This document shows, piece by piece, positions 3,867-64,000 of a stretch of DNA of 64,000 nt. The stretch lies in the NCBI GenBank assembly GCA_963805585.1, contig CAWDUR010000033.1:68135-132134 (forward strand). Reading direction: 5' to 3'. Each line of letters opens with the position of its first letter. Position 1 is the first letter of the stretch. The position numbers and the translations under genes are program-made. The notes under the pieces were generated by a model. That model ran no database searches, had not been told where the DNA came from, and was given only the letters and a program-made list of their open reading frames with translations. This DNA comes from an uncultured Chloroflexia bacterium. Lineage in GTDB: Bacteria; Chloroflexota; Limnocylindria; Limnocylindrales; CSP1-4.

Positions 3867-4580
3867 TCAGAAGCTGGACCCGGGCTTGTGCTTGGCCACG
3901 TAGGCAGCAGCCTGTGCGCGGCGCTGTAGGTTCAATTTGGAGAGGATCGAACTGACGTAGTTCTTGACGGTCTTGTCCGACAGGAAGACCTCGGCGGCGA
4001 TCTCCTTGTTGGTCTTGCCCTCGGCGACCAGCAGCAGGATCTTCTGCTCCTGGGCAGTGAGCTGCGCGAACTCGTCGGTGTAGGCGCTCGTGGCGATCCG
4101 TCGCACGCGCTCAAGGACCTTCTCGGTGACGGCCGGGTCGAGCAGTGACTCGCCGCGACCGACGGCTTCCAGGGCCGAGATGAGGTCGCGAGCCCGGACC
4201 TGCTTGAGCAGATATCCGCTGGCCCCGGCCACGATGGCTGAGAGGACCGCCTCCTCGTCGGGGTAGCTGGTCAGCATGACCACCCGGATGTGCGGGTGCT
4301 CGGAACGGATCTCGCGACAGGCCTCGATGCCAGAGCCATCAGGCAGGCGCACATCCATGATCACGAGATCCGGCACGAAGCGGTCCACGGCCAGCAGCGC
4401 CTCCTCGACCGTGCCGGCCTCAGCGACGACCTGGAAGGCCTCCCGTCGGTTGAGCAGGGCGGCCAAGCCCTGGCGCACGACCTCGTGGTCGTCGACGACC
4501 AGCAACCGCAGGGTCTTGCCTGAAGGCGCGCTGTCGCCGGAGTGTCGGGGAATGCCCCGGACCTCCATCGGGTCTGTCAT
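3867..4580 (-). CDS. NarL/FixJ (LuxR C-terminal) family response regulator, DevR/DosR-like
   Basis: Intact 237-aa ORF. Receiver domain: LRLLVVDDHEVV...DLVIMDVRLPDGSGIEA...MLTS. LuxR HTH: LTAQEQKILLLVAEGKTNKEIAAEVFLSDKTVKNYVSSILSKL. Overlaps the upstream kinase gene by 4 nt. Confidence 0.9.
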   Translation of the reverse strand: MTDPMEVRGIPRHSGDSAPSGKTLRLLVVDDHEVVRQGLAALLNRREAFQVVAEAGTVEEALLAVDRFVPDLVIMDVRLPDGSGIEACREIRSEHPHIRVVMLTSYPDEEAVLSAIVAGASGYLLKQVRARDLISALEAVGRGESLLDPAVTEKVLERVRRIATSAYTDEFAQLTAQEQKILLLVAEGKTNKEIAAEVFLSDKTVKNYVSSILSKLNLQRRAQAAAYVAKHKPGSSF

Positions 4581-5860
4581 GTGCTCGACTCCTTGGCTCG
4601 GCCGCGCTCGCCTCGCGGTGTCTCGAAGACCACGCGGGTGCCGTGCGGATCGCTCTCGATCGTAAGTGCGCCACCGAGCGACTCGGCGCGCGCGTGCATG
4701 TTGGTGAGGCCATGGTGGCCGAGCCGCTGGCTCTCTGCGGTGTCGAACCCGCGACCGTCGTCGATGATAGACAGGCGCAGCACATCCCGGCGGTCCTCGA
4801 CATTGACGCTCACCTTCGCGGCTCCCGAGTGACGAGCGACATTGCTCATGGCCTCTCGGGTGAGTTGGATGAGCTGGAGGGTCTCGTCCGGGTCGAGCTG
4901 CACCTCGGGGTCGCTCGTGAGTTCGACCTCGATGGTGGTGCTGCGCTCGAACTCGTCGGCCAGGGCCGTCAGACCGGCCAGCAGGTCGACGGCGCGCCGA
5001 GCCTCTGGATCGAGGCCCATGATGAAGTCGCGGATCTCCTGGATGGTGCCGTGGATGGACTCGATGGCGTGGTCGATCCGGTCGACCGCCTGGGAGGTGT
5101 CGAGGTGCATGAGCTCCTCGGTGTCCTCGAGGGCCAGGCTCACGGCGTAGAGTGACTGGATCGAGCCGTCGTGCAGGTCCTGGGCGATGCGCTCGCGCTC
5201 CTGGAGCACCGCCAGCTGGCGCAGCTCCTCGTGCATGCGGGCGTTATGGATGGCCAGCCCGGCGTGGCGGGCGAACGACTCCACGAGGTGTTCGTCTTCC
5301 TCGCTGAAGCCGCCGCCGCCAGACTTGTCCGTCAGGTAGAGGTTGCCGATGGCGCGACCCTCCACGCGGACGGGTACGCTCAGGAAGCTGTGCATGACCG
5401 GGTGGTGAAGCGGGAAGGCCGCGCTGCGGGGGTCCTCGGAGATATCCGGCACACGAAACGGGCGGTCCTCGCGGATCGCCACGCCCAGCAGTCCATGGCC
5501 GCGGGGCGGGTGGGCGATGGCACGCCGCACGTCGTCGCCCACGCCACTGGTGATGAACCGCTCCAGGGTGCCACGGTCGTCCGGGATGCCCAGCGCCGCG
5601 TATCGCGCTGCGACCAGTGGGCGCACGCTGTCCACGATGATCTGGAGCACCCGCTCCAGCGAGAGCTCCTGAGAGATGGCCACCGTCGCGGCATCGAGGG
5701 CTTCCAAGCGCCGCCGGGCCTCTTGGGCCGCCGCGGCCCAATCTTCCGCGGTCCGGATGGCCGCGGCGAGCTCTTCACGCGTGGGGCCGCTCTCCGCCCG
5801 GTCACCATCAACGGCGCCTGAGACGTGACTGGTTCCTGTCCTGGGAAAGCCCTGCTCCAT
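4577..5860 (-). CDS. GAF-domain sensor histidine kinase (HisKA_3 / NarX-DevS type)
   Basis: Intact 427-aa ORF. GAF region: LERVLQIIVDSVRPLVAARYAALGI...SFLSVPVRVEGRAIGNLYLTDK. H-box: ERERIAQDLHDGSIQSLYAV. HATPase_c: NVARHSGA...IIDDGRGF...GHHGLTNMHARAESLGG. Confidence 0.9.
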   Translation of the reverse strand: MEQGFPRTGTSHVSGAVDGDRAESGPTREELAAAIRTAEDWAAAAQEARRRLEALDAATVAISQELSLERVLQIIVDSVRPLVAARYAALGIPDDRGTLERFITSGVGDDVRRAIAHPPRGHGLLGVAIREDRPFRVPDISEDPRSAAFPLHHPVMHSFLSVPVRVEGRAIGNLYLTDKSGGGGFSEEDEHLVESFARHAGLAIHNARMHEELRQLAVLQERERIAQDLHDGSIQSLYAVSLALEDTEELMHLDTSQAVDRIDHAIESIHGTIQEIRDFIMGLDPEARRAVDLLAGLTALADEFERSTTIEVELTSDPEVQLDPDETLQLIQLTREAMSNVARHSGAAKVSVNVEDRRDVLRLSIIDDGRGFDTAESQRLGHHGLTNMHARAESLGGALTIESDPHGTRVVFETPRGERGRAKESST

Positions 5861-6119
5861 GTGGTCAATCTACCAGTCCTGAGATGACCAATGGCCCCCG
5901 CCGACCCTCCTGACGGCTCTGCGACCTTCCTTCGGGGCCGATACCCTTCCGCCATGCATGCCAAGAACATCCCCCCGATGACCGATGAGGCCATGCCCGA
6001 GAGCCCAGTCGCCGAGCGGCAGGTCGAAGCAGCCTCCTCGGAGGTGCTGGCGGCCGCACCGGCTCGAGCGCCGGCACGGTCCCAGCGCCGACCCCGGCAT
6101 CCTGGTGCCCACGTCGCTC

Positions 6120-26860: not shown

Positions 26861-29800
26861 TCAGCTGCAGCCGCTCGTGGCGCCGCAGTTCAGGCACTTG
26901 TAGCAGCTGCCGCTGCGCACCATGATGCTGCCGCAGTCCATGCAGGACGGTGAGTCGGCGCTCACCGAGAAGGCTACGCGCTGGCCGACTCCCAGGGAGG
27001 CGATGACGCTCCCGCTGCCGTTGCCGCCCACCGCGATGGGCGCCGCCGTGGCCTCTGATGCGGCCGCGATCGATCGTGCCGCCGTGCGCGTGGATCGAGG
27101 TCGCCGGCCGGTCACCGCCCGCTCCCCCTGAGGAGGGCGAGGAAGCGGGCGGGAGAGCGGCCATCGGAGTGGTCCTCGACGCCAGGCGGGAGGACTGCCA
27201 GTTCCGGCATCAGAGCGGCGTCATCCGGTGCTTCCGCCACGACGACCCCTCCCAGGATGCCAAGGGCGTCGCGGTCCTCCTTGGAGAGGAAGCGGCTGCC
27301 CATCCAGCGGAAGATGTAGTCCACCGTCGACTTGGCGATGGGCACCTCGGGATTGCCGGTGAAGCCGGATGGCTCGAAACGGACATGCGTGAACTTGCTG
27401 ACCAGGTCGCGCAGCGGCACGCCGTACTGCAGGGCGATGGAGGTCATGGTGGCCAGCGTGTCCATGAGGCCGCTGACCGTGGAGCCCTCCTTGGCCATCT
27501 TGAGGAAGATCTCGCCAGGCGTGCCGTCCGGGTAGAGGCCCACGGTGACGTAGCCTTCGTGTCCGGCCACCTGGAACTTGTGGGTCACGGCACGGCGCTC
27601 GTCCGGCAGGCGGCGCCGGTATGGCTTGGGTTCCCCGGTGAGCCCCAGGCCCGGCGCCTCGCCTGCCGTGGGGACGGTCACCTCGGCGTCGGCTGCCTTC
27701 TTCTTGCCGGTCGAGAGGGGCTGGCTGCGCTTGGAGCCATCGCGGTAGATGGCGATGGCCTTGAGGCCCAGTCTCCAGCCCTGCAGGTAGACGTCCTCGA
27801 TATCTTCAGCCGTGGCGTGCTCCGGCATGTTGACGGTCTTGCTGATGGCGCCCGAGAGGAAGGGCTGCGTGGCGGCCATCATGCGCAGGTGCCCCATGTG
27901 GTGGATGGAGCGCTCACCATTGACGGGCTTGAAGGCGCAGTCGAAGACCGCCAGATGCTCCGGCCGCAGGGCAGGGGCACCCTCGATGGTCTCGTGCTCA
28001 TCGATGTGGGCCACGATGGCTTCCACGTCATCCGGGCCGTAGCCCAGCCGACGCAGGGCCGCGGGCACGGTGCCGTTGACGATCTTGAGGAAGCCCTCGC
28101 CGACCAGCTTCTTGTACTTGATGAGGGCGATGTCCGGCTCGATGCCGGTCGTGTCGCAGTCCATCATGAAGGCGATGGTGCCCGTGGGCGCCAGGACGGT
28201 GACCTGGGCGTTGCGGTAGCCGTGTTGCTCGCCCAGTTGCAGCGCCTCGTCCCAGGCCAGCTGCGCGGCCTCCACCAGCGGTCGAGGGGTGACGCGCTCG
28301 TCGATGGCGTAGGCAGCCTCCCGGTGCTTGCGGATGACGCGCAGGAAGGGCCCCTCGTTGATGGCGTAGTCGTTGAAGGGACCACCGTGGTCGCGGGCGA
28401 TGATGGCTGACTGCCGGTAGGCCTCACCGGTCATGATGGCCGTGATGGCACCGGCAAAGGCGCGCCCTTCGTCGGAGTCGTAGGCCAGGCCGCGGCTCAT
28501 GAGCAGCGCCCCGAGGTTCGCGTAGCCCAGCCCGAGCGGCCGGAAGCGGTGCGAGTTCTCCTCGATCTGAGGCGTCGGGTAGGAAGCGTTGTCGACCAGG
28601 ATCTCCTGGGCCGTGATGGTCAGGCGGGCGGCGAAGCGGAAGGCCAGCGGCATCGAATTCGCCGTCGGCATCGACGAACTTCATGAGGTTCAAGCGAGGC
28701 CAGGTTGCAGGAGGTGTCGTTGAGGAACGAGAACTCCGAGCAGGGATTGGTGGCGTACTGACGATCGCTGTTGGCGACCGGGTTCCAGTCGTTGATGGTG
28801 GTGTCGTACTGGATGCCGGGGTCACCGCAGAGTCCAGGCCGCCTCAGCCATGCGCCGGTAGATGAGGCGCGCGGGCCAGGTGCCCGCCGGGTCGCCGGTC
28901 GTGACCTCATGCGTGGTCCACTCAGCGTCCCGCTCGACCGCACGCATGAAGTCGTCCGAGACACGCACGCTGTGGTTGGCGTTCTGGAAGAAGACCGAGC
29001 CGTAGGCTTCACCCGTGAAGGACGCGTCGTAGCCGGCCTCGATGAGGGCCCACGCCTTGCGCTCCTCGCTGGCCTTCGAATCGACGAAGTCGAGGATGTC
29101 CGGGTGGCCCGCGTCGAGGATGACCATCTTTGCGGCGCGGCGCGTCTTGCCGCCAGACTTGACGACGCCGGCGAAGGCGTCGAAGCCCTTCATGAAGCTG
29201 ACCGGTCCACTGGCGACGCCGCCGCCGGACATCTTCTCTCGCGAACCGCGGATGGTCGAGAGGTTGACACCGGCGCCGGAGCCGTACTTGAAGAGCATGG
29301 CCTCCGTCTTGGCCAGGTCCATGATCGAGGACATCGAGTCCTGCACCGAGTTGATGAAGCAGGCCGAGCACTGCGGTCGCGGCTCGACGCCGACGTTGAA
29401 CCAGACCGGGCTGTTGAAGGCCATCTTCTGGTGCAGGAGCATGTGCGTCAGCTCTGCCCGGAAGGAGGCCAGGTCTTCGTCGCTGGCGAAGGTGTGTTGC
29501 GTGGCCGCCCAGGCGGCGATGGTGTCGACGACGCGGTCGATGAGTTGCTTGACGCTGTGCTCGCGCTGCGGCGATCCGATGTGCCCACGGAAGTACTTGC
29601 TGACCACGACGTTGGTGGCCAGCTGGCTCCAGAAGGTGGGCACCTCCACGTCAGCCTGCTCGAAGACAGCCTTTCCGGATTCGTTGGCGATGCTGGCGTG
29701 GCGGATCTCCCACGTCACCTCGTCGTAGGGGTGCACGCCGGGCGTCGTCCAGCGACGCTCGAAGGTGATGCCGCGCGAGGTCGCGCCGGTGAAGCGGTAC

Positions 29801-29916
29801 TGCTCGTCCATGGCCAGCTTGGCGCTGCGCCGGCCACGCGCCTCGGTCGACCCAGAGCGCGTCGTCGCTGCGTGTTCCGCTGTGATCCTCCGGGCCCTGG
29901 CGACAGCTTCGCTCAT
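26861..29916 (-). CDS. nrdJ: Adenosylcobalamin-dependent (class II) ribonucleotide reductase; reading frame broken at least four times as assembled
   Basis: ATG 29916 with GGAGAGGAG RBS. Pieces: ORF 28822..30039 (..PVWFNVGVEPRPQCSACFINSVQDSM..GSGAGVNLSTIRGS..); ORF 28620..29012 (CGDPGIQYDTTINDWNPVANSDRQYATNPCSEFSFLNDTSCNLASL); ORF 28424..28825 (NLMKFVDADGEFD); ORF 27112..28671 (..VLAPTGTIAFMMDCDTTGIEPD..ISKTVNMP..IAIYRDGSK..); ORF 26861..27115 (C-terminal zinc finger CMDCGSIMVRSGSCYKCLNCGATSGCS*). Confidence 0.9.
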
Positions 29917-30112
29917 GACCGTGCTCCTCTCCGCGTCCTGCGCAACGGCGACGACACCGGCACGCTGCCTCGTTCCCTGGTTCGATGGGTCCCCAAGCGC
30001 GGCGGTGGTGCAGGCCGACCATCGGAGGCCGTGACCCAAGGTTGGGTGCCGGCTGAGGCGGGCCTCCGACTTCGTGCTGGAGGGGCTCCCCCTAGGCGGG
30101 GAGCGTCACGAC

Positions 30113-52809: not shown

Positions 52810-53394
52810 GTGCTGCTGCTGTATTCCATCGTCGCGGGGTTGCTCATCGGCCGCCTCCTCGGTGGGCGCGCCGGACACCTCGAGGACGTGCGCTTCACCT
52901 GGTGGCCGCTGGCGCTGGCAGGCCTGGCCGTCCAGCTCGTGCTCTTCGCAGGGCCGGTGGCCGAGCGAGTCGGTGCGGAGGGGCCCCCGATCTACGTGGC
53001 GTCCACGCTCGTGGTCTTGGCCGCGCTCTTGCGTAACCTGGCGCTGCCGGGGCTGGCCATCGTGGCTCTTGGTGCGGTCCTCAACCTCGTGCCCGTCGTG
53101 GCCAACGGCGGCGCCATGCCTTCCTCGCCGGACGCCTGGCTGGCGCTCAACGGCGTCGCGGAGCTGCCGGTCCGCCACTTCTCGAACTCCGTGCTGATCG
53201 GTCCAGGCACGCCCTTCGCCATCCTGGGCGACATCTTCGTCTGGCCGCGGCCGCTGCCGCTGGCCAACGTCTTCTCCATCGGGGATGCCGTCATCGCCAT
53301 CGGAGCCGTCGTCTTCCTGGTGGCCGGCATGCGGCCGACCTGGCGACCATGGGCCGCTGCGCGCCGCCTGGCCACGCTGCCTCGGGGCCAGTGA
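52810..53394 (+). CDS. DUF5317-family integral membrane protein
   Basis: GTG 52810, in frame with ORF 52753..53394, with GGAGG 14 nt upstream. (V)LLLYSIVAGLLIGRLLGGRAGHL..WWPLALAGLAVQLVLF...VVANGGAMP...GDIFVWPRPLPLANVFSIGDAVIAIG fits the DUF5317 pattern. Its stop overlaps the next gene's start (GTGA). Confidence 0.65.
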   Translation: MLLLYSIVAGLLIGRLLGGRAGHLEDVRFTWWPLALAGLAVQLVLFAGPVAERVGAEGPPIYVASTLVVLAALLRNLALPGLAIVALGAVLNLVPVVANGGAMPSSPDAWLALNGVAELPVRHFSNSVLIGPGTPFAILGDIFVWPRPLPLANVFSIGDAVIAIGAVVFLVAGMRPTWRPWAAARRLATLPRGQ

Positions 53395-55392
53395 CGACGG
53401 AGGCGACGCCAGGGTCCGGCCACGCACCCCAGGCGCAGGCCGCCCTGGCTCGGCTGGCACAGGCCGTGGACGCCGACCGCGCAGCCCGCCTCTACGTCGA
53501 TCGCGGAGACGGTGTCCTGGAGCTGGTCGCTGACATCGGCCCGACGGGCGCTTCCATCCTCCCTCACGGAGAGGCCCCTCCCGCCCGCGGCGCGGGTCCT
53601 CGCGAGGCTGAGCGCGGACGGCTGAGACGCTGGCTGTCGCCCGTCCAGCCGAGTGCGTCCGGCTCGGTCACACGCCTGCACCTGCCGGATGACCGGGGGG
53701 GCCTGCTCGTGCTCGAACGACAGCGCGCCGAACCGTTCAGCGAGGACGACCTGGCTATCGCGAGGGTCCAGGCCCGGCGACTGGTGGGCACCGTGGCCAC
53801 CCGTCTGGGCCCGCGGCCCATCACCTGGTCGTCGCACCTCGAGGCGGTCCAGTCGGTCGCGGCGCAACTCACCCGCCTGACCAGCGTCGAGGAGGTCACC
53901 TCGGCCCTCTGTGCCCACACCCAGCGCGTCGTGTCCTTCGATAACGCGCGTGTCTACGTGCTCCGCGACGATGGTCGGATGCTCGACCCGGTGGCCTGGC
54001 AGTCACAGGTCAGCGAGTACCAGGGCGAGACCGTGGAAGGCCTGCGGGTCACCGTGGGCCAGGGCATCACGGGCTGGGTGGCGCTCACCGGCCAGCCACT
54101 CAACGTCCCCGACGCTGACTCCGACCCGCGGGCCATCGAAGTGCCCGGCTCGCTGGACCTGCTCGAGGAATCGATGCTCCTGGCGCCTCTCCGCTCCGAG
54201 GGCCGCATCATCGGCGTCGTCGTGCTCTCCCGACTGGGCCTGGCGCGCTTCTCCGATGACGAGCTGCGCCTGCTCTGCGTGCTCGCGGACCTGGCGGCTG
54301 TGGCCATCGAGAACGCCCGGCTCCTGGCCGAGCGTGACCGCCATGTGGCCGAGCTGGAGGCGCTGCTGGACATCAGCCAGGCCGGAGGCGAGGCCAAGGA
54401 CGAGGCTGATCTGGCAGGCGTCCTGTCAGAGCGGCTGTGTCGCGCGGCGGGCATGGACACCTGCCTCATCTGGCGCTGGGACCAGCAGAGCGGCGACCTC
54501 GTGGCCATCGGTGCCGCTGGCCGCTCCCTCGAGGAGACGCCGCGCGACCTCGCCGTCGATCGACTGGCACGTCACGTGCTCATCACCGACGAGCCCCTGC
54601 GATTGGACGGACGATCCGGGCGGCTTCGATCCAGCCGGCCAGGCCCGACTGACGGAGTTGGGTGGTGGTTCGGCGCTCCTCGTGCCTCTCTCCACGGGCG
54701 GACGCGTGGTCGGCTTGGCGGAGCTGGCTGCCCGCGCGGACGGCCGCTACTTCCACGCTGGCGAGATCGCCTGGCTGCGCACGATGGCCAATCAGGCGGC
54801 CGGCGCGCTGGAGAATGCCAGCCTCGTGCGCCAACTCCGCGACGCCGCTGAAACGGATACGGTAACGGGTGTCTACAGCCACCGTCATCTGCAGGACCGC
54901 ATCCGTCAGGAGACGGCGCGGGCGGCCCGCTCAGGCTCCCCGTTGAGCGTCCTCATGGTGGATCTTGACGACTTCAAACGGGTCAATGATGCCTACGGCC
55001 ACCAGGCCGGCGACCGCGTGCTGCGGGCCATCGCCGGCGCACTGCGTGCTGCCGTGCGGACGAGCGACGTGGTGGCCCGCTACGGCGGTGACGAATTCGT
55101 CGTGCTGATGCCCGATACGGATGGAGCGGAGGCGGCTCGTGTCGCGCAGCGAGCCGGCGAGGCCGTGGCAGCGAAGGCCCATCCCATGACCGATGGCACG
55201 GAGGTCCACGTCACCTGCAGCGCGGGGCTGGCGCTCTACCCCCGTGACGGCAACAGCGCCCGGCGGCTGCTGCGCAGTGCGGATGCAGCCATGTATACGC
55301 ACAAGCGAGCGCGATCCTCGGCAGGCCGCGCGGCCGTGACCATCCACGGCTCGCCCATGGACCGGAAGGCTCCCGGCGCGTCGGTCCGCTAG
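53391..55392 (+). CDS. Multi-GAF diguanylate cyclase (GAF-GAF-GAF-GGDEF with an RxxD I-site); one frame break near 54600
   Basis: GTG 53391. GAF blocks include ..SFDNARVYVLRDDGRMLDPVAW...GITGWVALTGQPLNVPDA...MLLAPLRSEGRIIGVVVLS. It continues in ORF 53911..55392 with VTGVYSHRHLQDRI...LSVLMVDLDDFKRVNDAYGHQAGDRVL...RTSDVVARYGGDEFVVLM. Confidence 0.85.
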
Positions 55393-55422
55393 GCCGCCTG
55401 GCAGCGGGTCGACCTCGCGGCA

Positions 55423-55447
55423 ACTTTGTCAACACACTTGACAAAGT
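55423..55447. promoter_or_regulatory. Perfect 10-bp inverted repeat ACTTTGTCAA-cacac-TTGACAAAGT (candidate ROK/NagC-type operator overlapping a TTGACA -35-like hexamer)
   Basis: An AT-rich palindrome in GC-rich DNA, 46 nt upstream of the ROK regulator ATG (55493) and 31 nt after the cyclase stop. Confidence 0.55.
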
Positions 55448-55492
55448 GCGCTACGCTTGGGGCGTCCAGTCGAATGCTAGTCAGCGAGGCCC

Positions 55493-56689
55493 ATGCCCGC
55501 CGCCACGCTCGAGAAGGCGACCCACCAGGCCACGAGGCGCTCCAACGAGCGTCTCGTGCTGCGTACCGTCTTCGAGCAGGGACCCCTCAGTCGGGCGGAC
55601 GTCGCCCGCGCCACGGGGCTGACCCGGACGACCGTCTCGGATGTCGTCGAAGGCCTCATCGGCGACGGCCTGGCCAGGGAGATGGGCGTGGGGCCGTCGA
55701 CCGGGGGCAAGGCGCCCATCCTGCTGGAGGTGCCCGCTGACGCACGCCACCTGGTCGGCGTGGACGTGGACCGGGACCGCCTCAGCGGGGCCATCGTGAA
55801 CCTGCGCGGAGAGGTGCGGGGCCGAGCCTCCCGGGACCTGGCCGGCCGCGATGGCCCGGAGGCGCTCGACGACCTGGCGTCGCTCGTCACGGAGCTGACG
55901 CGCGCAGCCCTCGTGCCGCTGGCCGGGATCGGCGTCGGCACGCCGGGGCTCGTCGATACGGCCACGGGTGTGGTGCGCTGGGCGGTGGGTCTGGAGTGGT
56001 GCGATGTGGCGGTCGGACCGCGGCTCGCCGAGCTCACCGGCCTGCCGGTCATCGTGGTCAACGACTCCCAGGCCGCGGCCATGGGTGAATGGGCCTTCGG
56101 TCGCCACGATGCGTCGACCGCCATGATCGTGCTCAAGGTGGGCGAGGGCATCGGTGCGGGCATCGTCATCGGTGGCCGTCTGTATCCGGGCGACGATGCC
56201 GGCGCCGGAGAGATCGGACACACCCGTGTCGGGGAGGGCGAGGCGCTCTGCCGCTGTGGCGGGCGGGGCTGCCTGGAGACCGTGGCCAGCCTGCGTGCCG
56301 TCCTGGAGCGGGCCCAAGCCCTGGTCGAGCAGCATCCGGATCACGGCTCGCCCAGGGTCCCTTGACGCGTGATGCGCTGCTGGTCGCATTCCGCGACGGG
56401 GACACGCTGGCCCGTCAGGTCGTGCTGGAGTCGGCCCGACCGCTGGGTCGTGTCCTGGGGGCCATGATCGGCACGCTGGGTGCGCGCGAGGTCGTGCTCG
56501 TGGGTCCCATGACGGCCTTCGGCCAGCCCTGGCTCGACGAGGTCCGGGCAGAGACGCAGCGCTCCGCGCTGGCTATGCTCGTGGAAAAGCTCGAGCATCC
56601 ACCTGGGCACGACCGGCCCAGACGTCGTGGAACTGGGAGCCGCGGCCATGCTCATGACCACCGAGCTCGGACTGGCGTTCGCTCGATGA
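55493..56689 (+). CDS. ROK-family transcriptional regulator (NagC/XylR-like); two frame changes
   Basis: N-terminal wHTH: NERLVLRTVFEQGPLSRADVARATGLTRTTVSDVVEGLIGDGL. ROK core: GIGVGTPGLVD..VVNDSQAAAMGE...GAGIVIGGRLYPG..AGEIGH. Zinc motif: CRCGGRGCLE. It continues in ORF 56089..56763 (DALLVAFRDGDTLARQVVLESARPLG...VVLVGP) and a third frame (..LGAAAMLMTTELGLAFAR*, stop 56687-56689). Confidence 0.85.
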
Positions 56690-56845
56690 CCACCATCCGT
56701 CGCGAGGACCACCGCGCCTCCCCTGTGGAGGACGCAGCAGGGAGGAGGGCAGCCACGGCCTGATCGTCACGGCCGACGCGCTCGCGTCCGCGCCGTCCAA
56801 GCATCGTCTCCACCCGGTGACGGGTGGGACCAAGGAGGAGGTGTC

Positions 56846-58244
56846 ATGCACACCAAGAGATGGACCATCGCCGGCACCGTGCTGGCGACCCTGGCCCTCA
56901 CGGCCAGCAGCATCGGCGTCGTGGCCCAGGACGAGAGCGCTGCGCCAGCGGAGCCCGTGGCTTCGACCGGATACGCTGAGCTCGACCAGGCCATGGGCGC
57001 CGACCAGCCGCTGGCCGGGAGCCAAGGTCACCATGCAGACGCAGTGGATCGGCGGCGAGGGTGACAACTTCGATGCCGCGCTGCAGCCCTTCGTCGACGC
57101 CACCGGCATCCAGGTCTCGGTCGCCCAGGTGCCTTCGGGCCAGCACGAGACGCTCGTGAACGTCTCCCTCAACGGCGGCGCTGCTGCCGACATCATCCAG
57201 CTGGCGCAGCCGGCCGCCATCCTCGAGTACGGCGCGCAGGGCCTCATCCAGGACATCGCCCCGATGCTCGATACGGACAAGCTCCTGGCCGAGCATCCGG
57301 CGACGCTGCCGCTCTACACGGCTGACGGCAAGATCTACGGCGATGCCCTACAAGGTCGACGTCAAGTCGGTCGTGTGGTATCCGATCAAGGCCTTCGAGG
57401 CGGCCGGCTATGCGGTCCCCACGACGTGGGACGAGCTGATCGCCCTCTCCGACCAGATCGTCGCGGACGGCAGCAGCCCCTGGTGCGTGGGCATGGAGGC
57501 CGGCCCGGCGACGGGCTGGATCGCGACCGACTGATCGAGGACATCATGCTGCGCACGACGAGCGTGGAGAACTACAACAAGTGGGCCGCGCTCGAGCTCC
57601 CCTTCAACTCACCCGAGGTGAAGAAGGCCTTCGACCTGGCGGGCCAGATCTACTTCACGCCTGACTATGTCCTGGGCGGCAGCACGGCCATCCTGGCCAC
57701 GGCCCAGACCGACGCGATGGACCCCATGTTCACCGACGACCTGGCGGCCCCCGACTGCTGGATGCAGAAGCAGGCCACCTGGTACGGCCCTGACTTCTTC
57801 CCCGACATGAAGGCGACCGGCTCCTCCCAGTTCGTCGTGGGTGAGGACGTCGGGCCTGTTCTACTTCCCGCCCATCGATCCCGAGTACGGGCAACCCGGC
57901 GCTGGGCTCTGGTGACGCGTTCATGGTCAGCCAGGACCGGCCCGAGGTCCGTGCCCTCCTGCAGTACCTGGCCACGCCGGAAGGCATCAAGGCCTGGATC
58001 GACGCTGGCAGCGCGATCTCGGCCAACCAGGCCACCCCGACCGACTGGTACGCGGGCAACTACAAGCTCGAGGTCGCCTCTGGCATCGTGGCCAACGCGA
58101 CGTCCTTCGGCGTTCGATGCGTCCGACCTGATGCCGGCCTCGGTGCCGGCCTTCTGGTCTGGCGTGGTCGACTGGATCTCGGCCAACGGTGAGAACACCG
58201 ACGCGGTGCTCCAGGGCATCGACACTGCCCTCGCCGGCGGCTGA
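56846..58244 (+). CDS. Carbohydrate ABC transporter substrate-binding protein (family 1, NgcE/MalE-like); at least six frame changes
   Basis: AAGGAGGAGG RBS, ATG 56846. MHTKRWTIAGTVLATLALTASSIGVVAQDESAAP.. / KVTMQTQWIGGEGDNFDAALQPFVDATGIQV.. / PYKVDVKSVVWYPIKAFEAAGYAVPTTWDELIALSDQIVADGSSPWCVGMEAG / ..ATWYGPDFFP.. / GDAFMVSQDRPEVRALLQYLATPEG / FDASDLMPASVPAFWSGVVDWI..*. Confidence 0.85.
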
Positions 58245-58266
58245 TAGGTTCGCTTCGTACGCACCT

Positions 58267-58298
58267 GGTGGCGCGCCGCTCGCGAGCGGCGCGCCACC
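58267..58298 (+). other. 32-nt perfect palindrome / strong GC stem-loop between the binding-protein and permease genes
   Basis: GGTGGCGCGCCGCTC-GC-GAGCGGCGCGCCACC. It lies 23 nt after the SBP stop and 49 nt before the permease start, with no U-tract. Confidence 0.55.
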
Positions 58299-58346
58299 GA
58301 GCTCACCGAGCAAGTAGGCTAGGGGTCCGATCTCGGGAGGAAGCAC

Positions 58347-59526
58347 GTGACGTACGGGACAGCCGATGTCGAGGAGCCGACCGGCTGGCGCGGCTTCCTG
58401 GTGCCCATCGGTGTGGTCCTCGGGCTCGCGGGCCTGATCATCGGCATCTGGTTCCTCTTCGACAGCCAGGCCTCGGCCAACGTCGCCGCCATCTTCTACG
58501 ACCTGCTGGGCAATCCCGACGGAGGCCGCCGCCCTGCGCGCTGGCAGCGGCAACTCGCAACGTCGCCAAGCTCGATCCTGGCGGCCGTCGCGCTGGTCGT
58601 CGGCGTCGGGGGCATCTGGCTCTTCTACGCCGGCCTCAATGCCATCGTCATGCGCCTGAAGCGCCCGGTGGCGCGGGCGCCTGCTGCCCTGGGTCTTCGT
58701 CGGGCCGGCGCTCGCTGCTGCTCACCGTCTACCTGGTGTGGCCGGTCGTCTCGACGATCGTCAAGTCGTTCACCGTCGGTGCGGGTCTCGCCAACTGGGA
58801 GTGGGCCCTGACCAATCCGGCCAACCACCAGATGTACATCAACAACATCCTCTGGCTGGTCGTCGGGAGTGGCCGGCTCGGTCGGCCTGGGCCTGCTCAT
58901 CGCCGGCCTGGTCGACCGCGTCAAGTACGAGTCGCTGGCCAAGACGTTCATCTTCCTGCCGCTCGCCATCTCGCTGGTGGGCGCCTCGGTCATCTGGCGC
59001 TTCGTCTACACGTGGCGAGCCCCGGGCCAACCGCAGTACGGGCTCCTGAACGCCATCATGGACGGCGCTCGGACGCGAGCCCGTGCCGTGGTCGCAGACG
59101 CCCGACTACCACATCAGCACGTTCGCGCTCATCGTCATCCTCATCTGGCTCCAGACCGGCTTCGCCATGGTCGTGCTCTCGGCCGCCATCAAGGGCGTGC
59201 CCACCGAGATCACCGAGGCCGCCAGCCTCGATGGCGCCAATGAGCGGCAGAAGTTCTTCCGGGTCATCGTGCCCATGATCCGCGGCTCCTCGATCATGGT
59301 CACCATCACGACCGCCATCGTCGTGCTCAAGGTCTTCGACATCGTCTACGTCATGACCGGCGGACGGTTCAACACGGACGTCGTCGCCAACCAGATGTAC
59401 CTGCAGGCCTTCCAGTACTTCGATACCGGGCGCGCGTCGGTCCTGGCGGTCATCCTCTTCCTGGCGGTCCTGCCCTTGGCGCTCATCAACGTCCGGAACA
59501 TCCGCAAGCAGGGGTTGGCGGCATGA
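58347..59526 (+). CDS. Carbohydrate ABC transporter permease (MalF/UgpA-like); about five frame changes
   Basis: GGGAGGAAG RBS, GTG 58347. Fragments: ..LLTVYLVWPVVSTIVKSF.. / VGLGLLIAGLVDRVKYESLAKTFIFLPLAISLVGASVIWRFVY / ORF 59083..59526 (ALIVILIWLQTGFAMVVLSAAIKGVPTEITEAASLDGANERQKFFRVIVPMI, the EAA-loop signature). Confidence 0.85.
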
Positions 59527-59556
59527 GCTGCTTCGTCCAGGGCCAACGTCGGCGGC

Positions 59557-60417
59557 ATGAAGCCGCAGCGAAGCGTCTTCGTGCGCCGGCTGCCCCTCCG
59601 CATCGCGGTCATCGCCATCGCCTTCATCTGGTCGCTGCCGACGCTGGGGGTCTTCGTCAGCTCGTTCCGGGATGCCCGCGACATCGTCGCGACCGGCTGG
59701 TGGACGGCACTCCTCCAGCCCTTCCAGGCCAACTGGACGCTGGCCAACTACGAGGCGGTCCTGTCCGGCCTGAACATGGCCAACGCATTCATCAACAGCC
59801 TCATCGTGTCCATCCCGGCCACCATCATCCCGATCACCATCGCCGCCTTCGCCGCCTACGCCTTCGCCTGGATGCGCTTCCCGCTTCCGGGGCACCCTGT
59901 TCCTGGTCGTCGTGGCGCTGCTCGTCGTGCCGCTCCAGATGGCCCTCATCCCGGTCCAGGAGATGCTACCAGACCCTGGGCATCAACCAGACGCTTCCTG
60001 GGCGTCTGGCTGGCGCACACGGCCTTTGGCCTGCCGCTGGCCATCTTCCTGCTCTACAACTTCATCAGCCAGCTGCCCGGCGACCTCTTCGAGACGGCCA
60101 GCATCGACGGCGCTACGCCACTTCCAGATGTTCACCAAGGTCGTCCTGCCGCTCTCGGTGCCGGCCCTGGCGGCGTTCGCCATCTTCCAGTTCCTGTGGG
60201 TCTGGAACGACCTGCTGGTGGCGCTCGTCTTCCTGGCGCCACCGAGGAGCGCTCGGTCATGACGCTCGAGCTGAGCCGGCTGGTGGGTGGCCGGGGCCAG
60301 CAGTGGCACCTCCTGACGGCTGGCGCCTTCGTCACCATGATCCTGCCGGTCCTCGTGTTCCTGGCCCTGCAACGCTACTTCGTGCGCGGCATCCTCTCCG
60401 GCTCCGTCAAGGGCTGA
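59557..60417 (+). CDS. Carbohydrate ABC transporter permease (MalG/UgpE-like); about four frame changes that create no stop
   Basis: MKPQRSVFVRRLPLRIAVIAIAFIWSLPTLGVFVSSF...NSLIVSIPATIIPITIAAFAAYAFAWMRF, then off-frame stretches. The correct residues appear in ORF 59912..60262 (..HFQMFTKVVLPLSVPALAAFAIFQFLWVWNDLLVALVFL). The EAA region is ETASIDGAT. Confidence 0.85.
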   Translation: MKPQRSVFVRRLPLRIAVIAIAFIWSLPTLGVFVSSFRDARDIVATGWWTALLQPFQANWTLANYEAVLSGLNMANAFINSLIVSIPATIIPITIAAFAAYAFAWMRFPLPGHPVPGRRGAARRAAPDGPHPGPGDATRPWASTRRFLGVWLAHTAFGLPLAIFLLYNFISQLPGDLFETASIDGATPLPDVHQGRPAALGAGPGGVRHLPVPVGLERPAGGARLPGATEERSVMTLELSRLVGGRGQQWHLLTAGAFVTMILPVLVFLALQRYFVRGILSGSVKG

Positions 60418-60419
60418 GC

Positions 60420-62038
60420 GTGGGGGAGGAGCGCCGCCCTGAGGACGACGTCCTCGGCCAGTTGCTGCCGGCCTTCGAGGGGACCGATCCGCCCACGTGG
60501 CTGATGCGGCGGGTGGCTGCCGATCAGGCACACGGCGTGACCGTCTTCCTGCGCGCCAACGCGCGCGACGCAGACAGCCTGGCCAGCCTGGCCTGGCAGC
60601 TCCACGGTGCCGCCCCGGGCGACCTGCCTCTGCTCATCGGCGCGGACCAGGAAGGCGGCCAGCTGGTCGGGCTGGGCCACGAGACCACGCGCTTCCCGGG
60701 CGCCATGGCCCTTGGTGCTGCCGATGACGAGACCCTGACCGAGGCGGTCGGTCGCGCGACCGCTGACGAGCTGCGGGCACTGGGCATCACCGTCTGCTAT
60801 GCACCGGTCTGCGATCTGGCCCTCCTGCCGGGTAACGTGAGCTTGGGCACGCGTGCCTTCGGCTCTGATCCGGGAGACGTGGCGCGTCATGCGGCGGCGC
60901 TGACGCGCGGCCTGCAGGCGGGCGGGGTGGTGGCCACGGCCAAGCACTTCCCCGGCTTCGGGGCCGTGGACGTCGATCCGCACCACCGCCTGGGCGTGGT
61001 GGACGCATCGGCTGAGGTCCTGGAGGTGCGCGAGCTGGCGCCCTTTCCGCGCGGCCCTCGGAGCCGGTGCGCGGATGGTCATGTCCGGCCACGTGGCGCT
61101 GCCGGCCATCACCGGCGACCGTGCGCTGCCCGCCACCGTGTCACGCCAGGTCATGGACGGACTGCTGCGCCGTAGGCTGGGCTTCCAGGGGGTCTCCATC
61201 ACGGATGCCATGGACATGAAGGCCGTGGGCCAGGGTAGCGCCGGCATCGTTGACAGCCTGATGGCCCTGCGGGCGGGCGTGGACTTGCTGCTCTTGACGC
61301 CCGATCGCGCCGCGCAGCGACGCCTGGAGACCGGCTTTGCGCCAGGCAGCCCTGCGGGGCCTGCTGCCGGTGGCCGGCATCCGCTCCTCGCTGTCCAGGT
61401 TGTGACGTCTGCGTCGCTGGCTCGCGACCTTCGAACCCCGCGACCGGGGCGTCGTGCGAAGCGACGCGCACCGCGAACTGGCACGCCGCGCCGCGGCTGC
61501 GGCCATCACGCTCGTTCGAGACGAACGTGGGGTGTTGCCGCTGCGACCAGCCCCCGGGGATCGGGTCGTGGTCATCACGCCACAGCCACGCGACCTCACG
61601 CCGGCCGATTCATCTGCTGACGAGCCGCTCGCTCTGGCCGACGCGTTGCGCCGCCACCACGGCGACGTCATCCACATTCGCGTCGACGCCGAGCCGGATG
61701 ACCGACAGATCGCCGGCGCGCGCGAGGAGGCAGCCAGCGCCCGGTACGCGGTCGTGGCCACGCTGGCGGCAGACGTGCAGCCATCCCAGGCGCGCCTCGT
61801 CGCGGCCGTCCTTTCGACGGGCGTCCCGACCGTCACGTTGGCCATGCGCACGCCCTACGACCTGGCCGCCTATCCGGGCGCTCAGACGCACCTCTGCAGT
61901 TACGCCATCGTGCCCGCCAGTGTCGGCGCCGTGGCCGATGCACTCTTCGGCAGGCAGCCCATCCGCGGTCGTCTCCCGGTGGCCATCCCGGGACTCTATC
62001 CTCGGGGCCACGGCATGGAGGTGGACCTATGGGCCTGA
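60420..62038 (+). CDS. Glycoside hydrolase family 3 (beta-N-acetylhexosaminidase NagZ-like) with a C-terminal domain; about four frame changes
   Basis: GTG 60420. ..LLIGADQEGGQLVGL...ALGITVCYAPVCDL...GVVATAKHFPGFGAVDVDPH.. / MVMSGHVALPAITGDRALPATVSRQVMDGLLRRRLGFQGVSITDAMDM / ORF 61454..62038 (..AAAITLVRDERGVLPL...VVITP...). Confidence 0.85.
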
Positions 62039-63064
62039 TCGGACGAGATCCGCGAGCAGCCGGAGGTGGTGGCGCGCCTCCTTGGCGAGGCGGCACCGGA
62101 GGTGGAGTCGTTCTGCGAGGTGGTGCGTAAGGCCGATCCAAGCCACGTCGTGATCGCCGCGAGAGGTACTTCCGATCACGCGGCCGTCTATGCGCAGTAC
62201 GCCCTGGGCGTGTTGGCGGGCATGAACGTGGGGCTGGCCACGCCCAGCGTCCACTCTCTGTACGGGGCCGCCCCGGACTACGGCCGTGCCCTCGTGGTGG
62301 GCATCAGCCAGTCGGGTGCGTCACCTGATGTAGTTGGCGTCATCCGCGCGGCGCGGGCGCAGGGTGCCCTGACGCTGGCCATCACCAACACGCCTGGCTC
62401 TGACATGGCCACGGCGGCCGCCCACCATCTCGACCTGCGGGCCGGCCCAGAGAGGGCCGTGGCAGCCACCAAGACCTACACCGCCACCCTCACCGTGCTG
62501 GCCATGCTCACGGCCGGCCTGGCCGGGTCGGGGGCAGGGGATGATCTTCGCCGCCTGCCAGACGCTGTGGCGACCATGCTGGCCCAGGAGGACGAGGCTC
62601 GGCGCATCGCCGCGGACCAGGTCGGCCTGGACCGTTGCGTGGTCCTCGGCCGCGGGTATCACTACGCGACGGCTCGCGAGTGGTCACTGAAGCTCAAGGA
62701 GCTGGCCTACGTGCTGGCTGACCCCTATTCCTCGGCCGACTTCATCCACGGTCCGCTGGCCCTCATCGAGGCGGGTTTCCCGATCCTGGCGGTGGCCCCT
62801 CGGGGCGCCACCAGCGGGGACCTGGAGGCGGTCATGGAGCGGCTGGGTGAGGAGCTACAGGCCCGTCTGCTCATCCTTTCTGATGACCCGGCCCTGCGTG
62901 CCACCGGCCACTGGGCCCTGGCCCTGCCGGAAGACCTGCCCGAGTGGCTGATGCCCATCGCCTCGATCGTCCCCGGCCAGCTGCACGCGGTGCACCTGAC
63001 GATGGCCAAGGGTCGCGACCCCGAGCAGCCGCGCTCCATCCGCAAGGTCACCCTGACGCACTGA
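62029..63064 (+). CDS. SIS-domain sugar-phosphate isomerase/deaminase (GlmS-C/AgaS/NagB-II-like); frame break within the first ~6 codons
   Basis: ATG 62029 overlaps the GH3 stop (ATGGGCCTGA). After MGLIG the frame shifts to EIREQPEVVARLLGE... (ORF 62066..63064): VIAARGTSDHAA..VVGISQSGASPDVV...LAITNTPGS...AVAATKTYTA (tandem SIS motifs). Confidence 0.8.
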
Positions 63065-63202
63065 CGCACTGACGCGCTCCGGAGTCTGCCGGCCGGGACC
63101 GGACGGCCGATCTGCGTCCAGGAGGCGTCGCGACGGGCTTCGCTCCTTGGGCATCCGGCGTTACCTCGGGCTGCCCGCGGCGCGACCACAATGAACAGAC
63201 CA

Positions 63203-63231
63203 TTGACAGAGTCTATACATAGCGCTATGCT
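63203..63231 (+). promoter_or_regulatory. Near-consensus sigma-70/SigA-type promoter of the heliorhodopsin gene (TTGACA-17 nt-TATGCT)
   Basis: caTTGACAgagtctatacatagcgcTATGCTtcgg lies in a conspicuously AT-rich islet. It is 52 nt upstream of ATG 63284, which has an AGGGAGGAA RBS. Confidence 0.55.
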
Positions 63232-63283
63232 TCGGCGTAGACGTTAGACACGGGCTGTCGCCCCGTGGACCAGGGAGGAATCC

Positions 63284-64000
63284 ATGACTGCCATCGCCGT
63301 ACCCACCGCCGCTGATGTCGCGGTATCACCCCTCGCGCCGGATCGCGCCCAGGGCTTGTTCCGTTGGAATGCCGTCCTCGCCGCGCTGCACGGCATCCAG
63401 GGACTGCTCATCCTGGCGTTGTCGTTCGCCAAGGACCCCATGGTCACTTCGCCGGTGGTGACTAGCTACCTCACCTTCGACACTGCGACCGAGACCCTCG
63501 TGCCGGCACAGCGCGTCCTCTTCGAGCTCCCCATCGGCCCGGCCGTGGCGCTCTTCCTCTTCATGAGCGCGATCGCGCACTTCCTTCTGGCCTGGCCGAT
63601 GCGCGACTGGTATGAGCGGCGCCTGGCATCAGGCATCCAGCCCATGCGCTGGCTGGAGTACTCGCTGAGCTCAAGCGTCATGATCGTCATCATCGCCGCG
63701 CTGGCAGGCATCCAGGAGATCGGCACTCTGGTGGCCATCTTCGGCGTCAACGCGGCTATGAACCTTTTCGGCTGGTCCATGGAGTCGGCCAATCAGGGCC
63801 GGGCCAAGACCCAGTGGAACCACTACATCTTCGGCGTCGTGGCCGGCATCGTACCGTGGGTCGTCATCACCATCGCCCTCTGGTCCGCCGCGACGGAGCC
63901 CGGCGCCGCTGCCATCCCCGGGTTCGTGTGGGCCATCTTCGTGTCGCTCTTCATCTCCTTCAACATCTTCGCCATCACCATGATCCTGCAGTACCGCAAG
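63284..64000 (+). CDS. Heliorhodopsin (7-TM retinal protein, inverted topology), first 239 codons; gene continues beyond the right edge
   Basis: Missing from the ORF track because there is no stop before the window end. Family blocks: FRWNAVLAALHGIQGLLILAL; PIGPAVALFLFMSAIAHFLL; MRWLEYSLSSSVMIVIIAALAGIQEIGTLVAIFGVNAAMNLFGW; FGVVAGIVPWVV; IPGFVWAIFVSLFISFNIFAITMILQYRK. These match the prototype heliorhodopsin as I recall it (RWVEYSLSSSVMIVLIA..AIFGVNASMILFGW..GIVPW..PGFVYG..LQYKGK). Confidence 0.85.
   Translation, partial: MTAIAVPTAADVAVSPLAPDRAQGLFRWNAVLAALHGIQGLLILALSFAKDPMVTSPVVTSYLTFDTATETLVPAQRVLFELPIGPAVALFLFMSAIAHFLLAWPMRDWYERRLASGIQPMRWLEYSLSSSVMIVIIAALAGIQEIGTLVAIFGVNAAMNLFGWSMESANQGRAKTQWNHYIFGVVAGIVPWVVITIALWSAATEPGAAAIPGFVWAIFVSLFISFNIFAITMILQYRK

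Follow-up and report, generated by a model that had tools for sequence, protein, structure and literature searches.

A 64,000-nucleotide stretch of contig CAWDUR010000033.1 from an uncultured Chloroflexia bacterium (the window) ends on the right within a gene for a heliorhodopsin (HeR), which has its own promoter and, over that promoter, three tandem repeats resembling an operator of the CarH/LitR family. HeRs are retinal-binding seven-helix photoreceptors with an inverted topology, and CarH/LitR proteins are adenosylcobalamin (AdoCbl)-dependent photoreceptor-repressors. The gene family itself is already known; the new element at this locus is the upstream operator, which is predicted from its pattern and its conservation. 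Positions of the features are collected in Table 1.

The HeR frame is read on the forward strand from the ATG at 63284 and stays free of stops for 239 codons up to base 64000, covering helices 1–6 and the beginning of the loop toward helix 7. The initial annotation had reported this frame as well as its absence from the track of open reading frames (ORFs), and translation confirms both: the frame is unlisted because frames that reach the end of the sequence without a stop are left out by the ORF lister. The peptides which that annotation had matched to the family (RWLEYSLSSS, ALHGIQ, IAHFLL, AIFGVNAAMNLFGW, GIVPW and PGFVW...LQYRK) are all found in the translation. The family claim, for which it had asked for a profile search, is borne out by Pfam PF18761 (E = 2.1e-72; 243.8 bits with a cut-off of 26.7; profile positions 1–208 of 242) and by the NCBIfam equivalog NF038020, 'heliorhodopsin HeR' (244 bits with a cut-off of 100; profile positions 3–210 of 244), both matches being shortened by the window edge only. 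Given the E value for PF18761, the frame is not open by chance. The closest solved structures by sequence are TaHeR (E = 1.3e-44) and 48C12 (E = 6.2e-38). A database protein of 275 residues, P0001, encoded on one NCBI/ENA contig of 159,125 bp, is 100% identical over all 239 residues of the window and continues beyond them with ...IGRWKDYLVGEKTYMFMSLFAKTILAWQVFAGTLAP. Judged by its sequence, the gene almost certainly encodes a HeR, and it is an ordinary, uncharacterised member of a known family. HeRs have already been described in Chloroflexota (PMC8612252), and Chloroflexota HeRs also appear in Chazan et al., as cited in PMC11109279.

The key residues and the modelled fold agree with this assignment. 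The counterion Glu and the two family-typical His residues had been pointed out from the letters alone; E125, H36 and H99 align with their counterparts in 48C12 and are invariant in an alignment of 34 relatives. Helix 7 with the Schiff-base Lys, placed past base 64000 by the initial annotation, is carried by the identical full-length P0001, in which K261 lies within SLFAKT, in register with K241 of 48C12, and this Lys is likewise invariant in the 34 relatives. An AlphaFold model of P0001 (pLDDT 80, pTM 0.76) has seven long helices and a beta-hairpin between transmembrane helices 1 and 2 (TM1–TM2; strands 55–66 and 71–83). The ten best matches of the model in PDB are all HeRs, with template modelling (TM) scores of 0.73–0.85 (0.77–0.85 for 48C12 and TaHeR), whereas type-1 rhodopsins score lower, at about 0.53–0.62. 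Lys and Arg residues were counted under the positive-inside rule of thumb, with helix limits taken from the model: 13 fall in the N-terminus and the TM2–3, TM4–5 and TM6–7 loops and 2 in the other loops, a split that is the pattern expected for an N-in (inverted) topology, although such a count does not amount to a measurement. The window HeR thus shares with 48C12 (PDB 6su3, 6uh3) and TaHeR (PDB 6is6) the Pfam and NCBIfam family, the counterion Glu, the two conserved His, the Schiff-base Lys and the modelled TM1–TM2 beta-hairpin. It differs from them in being only 41–46% identical in structural alignment, in having 26 N-terminal residues outside the profile, and in coming from Ca. Limnocylindria (Chloroflexota).

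Upstream of the gene, TTGACA-17-TATGCT is the sole sigma-70-like site within 62000–64000, where shuffles give 0.3, and about 18 of 21 related species have TTGACA at this position. The near-consensus promoter and the strong ribosome-binding site of the initial annotation are therefore both present, the latter as a GGGAGGA whose GGAGG-like core is kept in aligned relatives. The 'AT-rich islet' in which the promoter was said to lie is real but mild, with a GC content of 0.635–0.64 at 63100–63400 versus about 0.70–0.72 upstream. The proposal of an independent transcription unit likewise stands: the gap between HeR and the preceding gene, a NagB-II-like SIS gene, holds a conserved -35, -10 and operator of its own, and HeR is a single-gene transcription unit.

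Table 1. Features of the heliorhodopsin locus at the right edge of the window (DR, direct repeat; CDS, coding sequence)
Feature	Position	Strand	Basis or remark
Non-coding spacer, from SIS (NagB-II-like) stop to operator	63065–63187	.	Poorly conserved
CarH/LitR-type operator (putative), three tandem 11-bp nnnnTnnACAn direct repeats	63188–63220	+	Pattern match, conservation
DR1, acaaTgaACAg	63188–63198	+	Upstream of -35
DR2, accaTtgACAg	63199–63209	+	Contains -35
DR3, agtcTatACAt	63210–63220	+	In promoter spacer
-35 hexamer, TTGACA, within DR2	63203–63208	+	Promoter scan, conservation
-10 hexamer, TATGCT (TAnnnT among relatives)	63226–63231	+	Promoter scan, conservation
Predicted transcript start, 5' leader of ~46 nt	near 63238	+	Inferred
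Shine-Dalgarno sequence, GGGAGGA, 4 nt upstream of ATG	63273–63279	+	Sequence; conserved in aligned relatives
HeR CDS, codons 1–239 of 275	63284–64000	+	Profile and structure alignments, P0001; gene cut by window edge
His36 codon (H23 of 48C12)	63389–63391	+	Structure alignment
His99 codon, second family His (H80 of 48C12)	63578–63580	+	Structure alignment
Glu125 codon, Schiff-base counterion (E107 of 48C12)	63656–63658	+	Residue alignment to 6su3
Lys261 codon	64064–64066 (outside window)	+	Extrapolated from P0001
Stop codon	64109–64111 (outside window)	+	Extrapolated from P0001

This promoter is embedded in a predicted CarH/LitR-type operator, which the initial annotation had overlooked. CarH operators are built from tandem 11-bp direct repeats of the form 5'-nnnnTnnACAn-3' (PMC9304148), and at the HeR promoter the TnnACA cores of three such repeats together span 63192–63219. 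The exact three-repeat pattern has one match on both strands of the 64-kb window and none in 100 window shuffles. The pattern was also scored out of 12 in about 1.48 Mb from 84 related loci. Matches of at least 11/12 number 23, each of them directly upstream of a HeR gene, and none was found away from HeR in this set. Among the syntenic loci, 20 of 22 score at least 10/12, and the mode of the best score in random 200-bp windows is 6. An upstream alignment of 21 syntenic relatives contains a single conserved block, T..ACA.AC..TTGACA.A...T..AC(A), amid free sequence, and the conservation maxima coincide with the T and ACA positions, including those of DR3 in the normally free promoter spacer. 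The arrangement is also that of CarH/LitR class I operators (T. thermophilus PcarH, B. megaterium, and Pcrt of Myxococcales), which have three tandem 11-bp nnnnTnnACAn repeats with a TTGACA -35 inside one of them.

In related genomes, HeR and carH are physically linked. T. thermophilus CarH, after a check of its sequence against PDB 5c8d, served as the tblastn query for CarH homologues; this search replaced a regular expression for the B12-binding motif in six-frame translations, which proved too noisy in high-GC DNA. Full-length homologues lie 1–3 kb from HeR in about 27 related loci, are 32–42% identical to T. thermophilus CarH (E down to 5e-37) and consist of MerR_1, B12-binding_2 and B12-binding domains. 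Like CarH/LitR class I proteins, these neighbouring MerR and B12-binding regulators keep the Wx9EH motif and His177 (W131, E141, H142 and H177 in 12 of 12 homologues examined). In NCBIfam they score highest against 'repressor CarH' (171 bits, which is below the 400-bit equivalog cut-off), and JGI labels some members of the cluster 'light-induced transcriptional regulator'. Repeats scoring at least 9/12 are present at 21 of 22 carH-linked loci. There the repeats overlap the HeR -10 on the opposite strand, within the short intergenic region between the divergent genes.

The linkage takes the form of a fixed seven-gene cassette in 22 loci (within L021–L068), CMAS <- DUF1365 <- FAD amine oxidase <- SRPBCC / HeR -> SDR <- CarH, and the same cassette is found at L086 6001–12825. 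At three other loci, carH is upstream and divergent, and a repeat pair with an embedded TTGACA lies at the promoter of an operon ending in HeR; this promoter drives an NmrA-like gene, the stop codon of which overlaps the ATG of HeR. Since other Limnocylindria contigs carry the cassette without HeR, HeR can be in or out of it, and in the clade of the window HeR lies outside the cassette, yet the operator is kept. The contigs in question are L087 (7001–12759) and L088 (7001–14107), with CarH, SDR, SRPBCC, amine-oxidase, DUF1365 and CMAS genes; in L088 a DNA photolyase is added at the end, and in both contigs TnnACA repeats occur again in the SDR–SRPBCC intergenic region.

The content of the cassette recalls known light- and stress-responsive clusters. 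The order of the FAD amine oxidase, DUF1365 and CMAS genes matches ufaD-ufaO-ufaM, which, from Pfam family and gene order only, suggests UfaD-, UfaO- and UfaM-like proteins. The ufaD-ufaO-ufaM genes encode a furan fatty acid pathway that in R. sphaeroides belongs to the singlet-oxygen response (PMC7380195), and LitR-linked light-inducible clusters of Pseudomonas hold SDR, FAD oxidoreductase, ufaM and photolyase genes (PMC9758184). The neighbours of HeR in the sister clades (a UfaD-like FAD amine oxidase, a UfaO-like DUF1365 protein, a UfaM-like CMAS methyltransferase and an SDR) resemble the gene sets of LitR-linked and sigmaE-ChrR-type clusters such as the pmlR1 region of Pseudomonas, RSP1091–1087 of R. 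sphaeroides and ufaD-ufaO-ufaM of R. palustris. However, those clusters are without a rhodopsin, and the window itself carries none of the ufa-type genes. More generally, the recurrent neighbours of HeR are NAD(P)H-dependent carbonyl oxidoreductases, namely SDRs, an NmrA-like protein and aldo-keto reductases (AKRs).

Single loci add variants of these neighbourhoods. At L059 8990–11744, a methylglyoxal-synthase (MGS)-like gene precedes HeR, which is followed after a 35-bp gap by an AKR gene. At L071 8556–12215, the stop of an NmrA-like/SRPBCC fusion overlaps the HeR ATG, and a convergent glutamine synthetase gene lies downstream. At L085 2092–3486, a gene with B12-binding and alpha/beta-hydrolase domains, an unusual architecture, is situated near carH, with a frame-broken HeR on one side and an NmrA-like gene on the other.

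The immediate neighbours of HeR in the window belong to a different set. HeR relatives are encoded in 174 species-representative genomes, and the best 80 of the 174 are almost all metagenome-assembled genomes of Chloroflexota or Ca. Limnocylindria, many from Danish soils. The host, a soil bacterium, belongs to the class Ca. Limnocylindria (Chloroflexota), a placement with which the monoderm argument of the initial annotation is compatible. The window and about 21 related species whose HeR is at least 77% identical have a gene order in common: GAF-GGDEF, NagC-like ROK, sugar-binding protein, two permeases, GH3, NagB-II-like SIS, HeR and AKR, the last being a convergent YghZ-type gene downstream of HeR in the relatives. 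The description of the upstream genes as a ROK-regulated N-acetylglucosamine (GlcNAc)-type ABC/GH3/SIS cluster holds by NCBIfam names; the GH3 protein is a beta-N-acetylhexosaminidase, the binding protein is weakly NgcE-like, and the cluster is read as one that takes up and breaks down GlcNAc/chitobiose. In more distant relatives, HeR lies in quite different gene contexts, and because of this the sugar cluster appears as a neighbour by descent in one clade and not as a conserved partner.

Together, the data are best explained, with reasonable but far from full confidence, by a canonical HeR whose transcription CarH represses in darkness until light lifts the repression, within a light-stress regulon. 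CarH control of the HeR promoter, taken by itself, seems probable from the sequence evidence. Because the promoter sits inside a CarH-type binding site, HeR synthesis is probably confined to the light. Without light, a CarH oligomer carrying AdoCbl would occupy the -35 and the spacer and block RNA polymerase; under UV-to-green light, the Co–C bond would be photolysed, CarH would leave the DNA and HeR would be transcribed. HeR would then be produced under illumination only, as a member of a CarH-controlled light-stress regulon, and in the sister lineages it would lie physically within this regulon, beside the SDR gene and the ufaD/ufaO/ufaM-like (furan-fatty-acid-type) operon. That AdoCbl, the chromophore required by CarH, is used in this cell follows indirectly from a gene of the window for a class II, B12-dependent ribonucleotide reductase (27115–30105, reverse strand, split into two ORFs). 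Class I CarH/LitR systems are known to control carotenoid genes, photolyase-type genes and carH itself; in this case the target would be the HeR gene, and a further difference from these systems is that in the clade of the window the regulator gene is not linked to its target.

As to the function of the protein, the working model adopted here is by analogy that of AbHeR with glutamine synthetase, TfHeR with photolyase and OcHeR with OmrDE, in which HeR modulates a nearby-encoded protein in the light. The most likely action of HeR is that of a slow-cycling sensor of light which modulates a partner protein, and not that of an ion pump. The partner may be one of the neighbouring NAD(P)H-dependent carbonyl oxidoreductases (SDR, AKR or NmrA-like), which is a lead only. 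None of the three published partners is encoded adjacent to HeR in the window, where the ABC system beside HeR imports sugar and belongs to another transcription unit, and glutamine synthetase is found beside HeR in L071 only, in convergent orientation. Going beyond the window, the balance tips slightly toward a two-tier circuit in which B12-based CarH would gate the synthesis of retinal-based HeR across a large part of Limnocylindria. In such a circuit HeR may, with the same slight preference, be counted as a member of a light- or singlet-oxygen-stress regulon together with SDR, ufaD/ufaO/ufaM-like genes and sometimes a photolyase.

Several points weigh against this preferred explanation. In the actinobacterium A. 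photophilum, HeR mRNA increases in the dark and not in the light (PMC8591293). The NCBIfam score of the CarH homologues falls short of the equivalog cut-off, as given above. About 35 more distant Limnocylindria HeR loci are without such repeats and without carH nearby, and because the repeats are absent there, the operator wiring is clade-specific. The 20 largest ORFs of 1–53000 and the 53–63 kb cluster showed no carotenoid or retinal (blh) genes, in a survey that was not exhaustive. By tblastn, carH was not found in the 64-kb window, nor within 10 kb of HeR in any locus of its clade; since no carH is visible in these 64 kb, binding of CarH at the site of the window is something that we infer. 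Finally, OmpR/PhoB-type response regulators bind TTnACA-like direct repeats, phased at about 11 bp, over or near the -35.

This last point leads to another explanation of the repeats, in which they are the site of a different regulator, either an OmpR/PhoB-type response regulator or another MerR protein, and HeR follows a signal other than light. The lack of a carH gene near the HeR of the window would fit such a regulator, as would the GAF-histidine kinase and the GAF-GGDEF protein encoded in the window and the over-representation of two-component genes near HeRs (PMC8612252). However, there is an exact fit to the CarH consensus, with three copies of the T and the ACA at 11 bp, one of which contains the -35, and HeR promoters carry the same motif in exactly those clades that have carH next to HeR. 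Its orientation there is inverted, over the -10, as would suit a repressor rather than an activator, and the promoter of the window, with its perfect -35, needs no activator. A different regulator is therefore considered unlikely. Apart from this question, members of this class repeatedly have signalling proteins encoded within 10 kb of HeR, namely a GAF-histidine kinase, a GAF-GAF-GGDEF protein and adenylate/guanylate cyclases (window 4580–5869, reverse strand, and 53349–55392, forward strand; L083 4217–7576; L084 8531–9775).

HeR could also be read through from the ROK/ABC/GH3/SIS operon and modulate a GlcNAc ABC importer in the light, comparable to OcHeR and OmrDE. HeR is on the same strand as that operon, no terminator-like site was found between SIS and HeR, the order SIS -> HeR <- AKR is kept in about 21 related species, and modulation of an ABC transporter by a HeR has been published (PMC11109279). 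Read-through is nevertheless hard to reconcile with a gap of 125–219 bp that has its own conserved consensus -35, -10 and operator. The adjacency is moreover limited to one clade (HeR at least 77% identical), whereas the HeRs of the sister clades are in unrelated contexts. Nor do the transporters correspond: OmrDE is a heterodimeric drug exporter, whereas the system in the window is an importer dependent on a binding protein, as follows from its solute-binding protein and two BPD_transp_1 permeases, so that a pairing of the OcHeR-OmrDE type is not found here. A role in the sugar operon is thus given little credence.

A plain constitutive promoter, in which the flanking TnnACA copies are due to chance or are conserved only through the -35 that they flank, is very unlikely. 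TTGACA alone would explain DR2, and chance sites in the promoter scan amount to 0.3 per 2 kb; however, DR1 and DR3 are as conserved as the -35 over 20 species while neighbouring bases are free, the pattern is found in 0 of 100 shuffles, and matches of 11/12 or better in 1.48 Mb occur at HeR only. That the protein is a light-driven ion transporter like viral V2HeR3 rather than a sensor or regulator is most improbable of all, because, although one viral HeR transports protons (as cited in PMC11109279 and PMC12873467), no pumping of ions was seen in the bacterial HeRs tested so far, AbHeR and others (PMC9529153), and the window sequence is that of a typical bacterial HeR by its identity to 48C12 and TaHeR.

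CarH control of HeR, the reading preferred here, is a lead worth testing and not an established result. In the library of papers searched, none was found that links HeR with CarH/LitR or places any rhodopsin in a CarH regulon. Among frequent HeR neighbours, a 'MerR family regulator' and an 'SDR' have been reported and read as candidate HeR partners (PMC11109279), and the supplementary tables of that paper contain no text on MerR or B12. Bulzu et al. proposed that HeRs have a function in oxidative stress on the basis of neighbouring genes for glutaredoxin, glyoxalase and catalase (PMC8612252). Hypotheses on what HeRs do come mainly from genomic context, and partner-specific roles have been shown for only three HeRs (glutamine synthetase, photolyase and an ABC exporter). 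This locus and its relatives add a regulatory clue instead of another neighbour, namely the predicted operator of a light-sensing repressor at the HeR promoter. If CarH does control it, HeR would be a light-induced component of a stress response in these soil bacteria, and its function would be placed in the management of photo-oxidative stress, for instance as light-tuned control of a carbonyl or lipid oxidoreductase. The 33-bp site would then be part of a defined promoter-operator-regulator set with which HeR function could be tested.

The genes around HeR in the right half of the window are frequently broken. The initial annotation had noted HeR as one of the few long genes there with no frame break, and the breaks in the neighbouring genes are real: compared with the intact orthologues of L081 and L082, about 10 frame shifts interrupt the GAF-GGDEF, ROK, solute-binding, first permease and GH3 genes (53349–62035, forward strand). 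Both frame shifts in GH3 are a single extra T in T-runs, at 61044 and 61338. The frame shifts, and likewise the split of the ribonucleotide reductase gene, are probably due to indels of long-read assembly rather than to gene decay. The 20 largest ORFs of 1–53000 included no photolyase gene, in the same non-exhaustive survey as above.

Other candidate elements upstream of HeR were considered and set aside. A 12-bp perfect palindrome over the -10, CATAGCGCTATG (63218–63229), was tried as an operator; with two mismatches allowed it is at chance expectation, its 10-bp core is found in 0 of 84 related loci, and an operator role was rejected. A GC-rich hairpin in the 5' leader (63250–63268) folds no better than shuffles (z = 0.29) and is conserved in the closest relatives only. 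No Rfam family reached the gathering score across the window. At 63065–63190, the SIS–HeR gap is about 80 bp longer in the window than in relatives (219 bp versus 125–134 bp), and the extra sequence, which is unmatched in relatives, contains a tandem duplicate of ACTGACGC (two copies) directly after the SIS stop.

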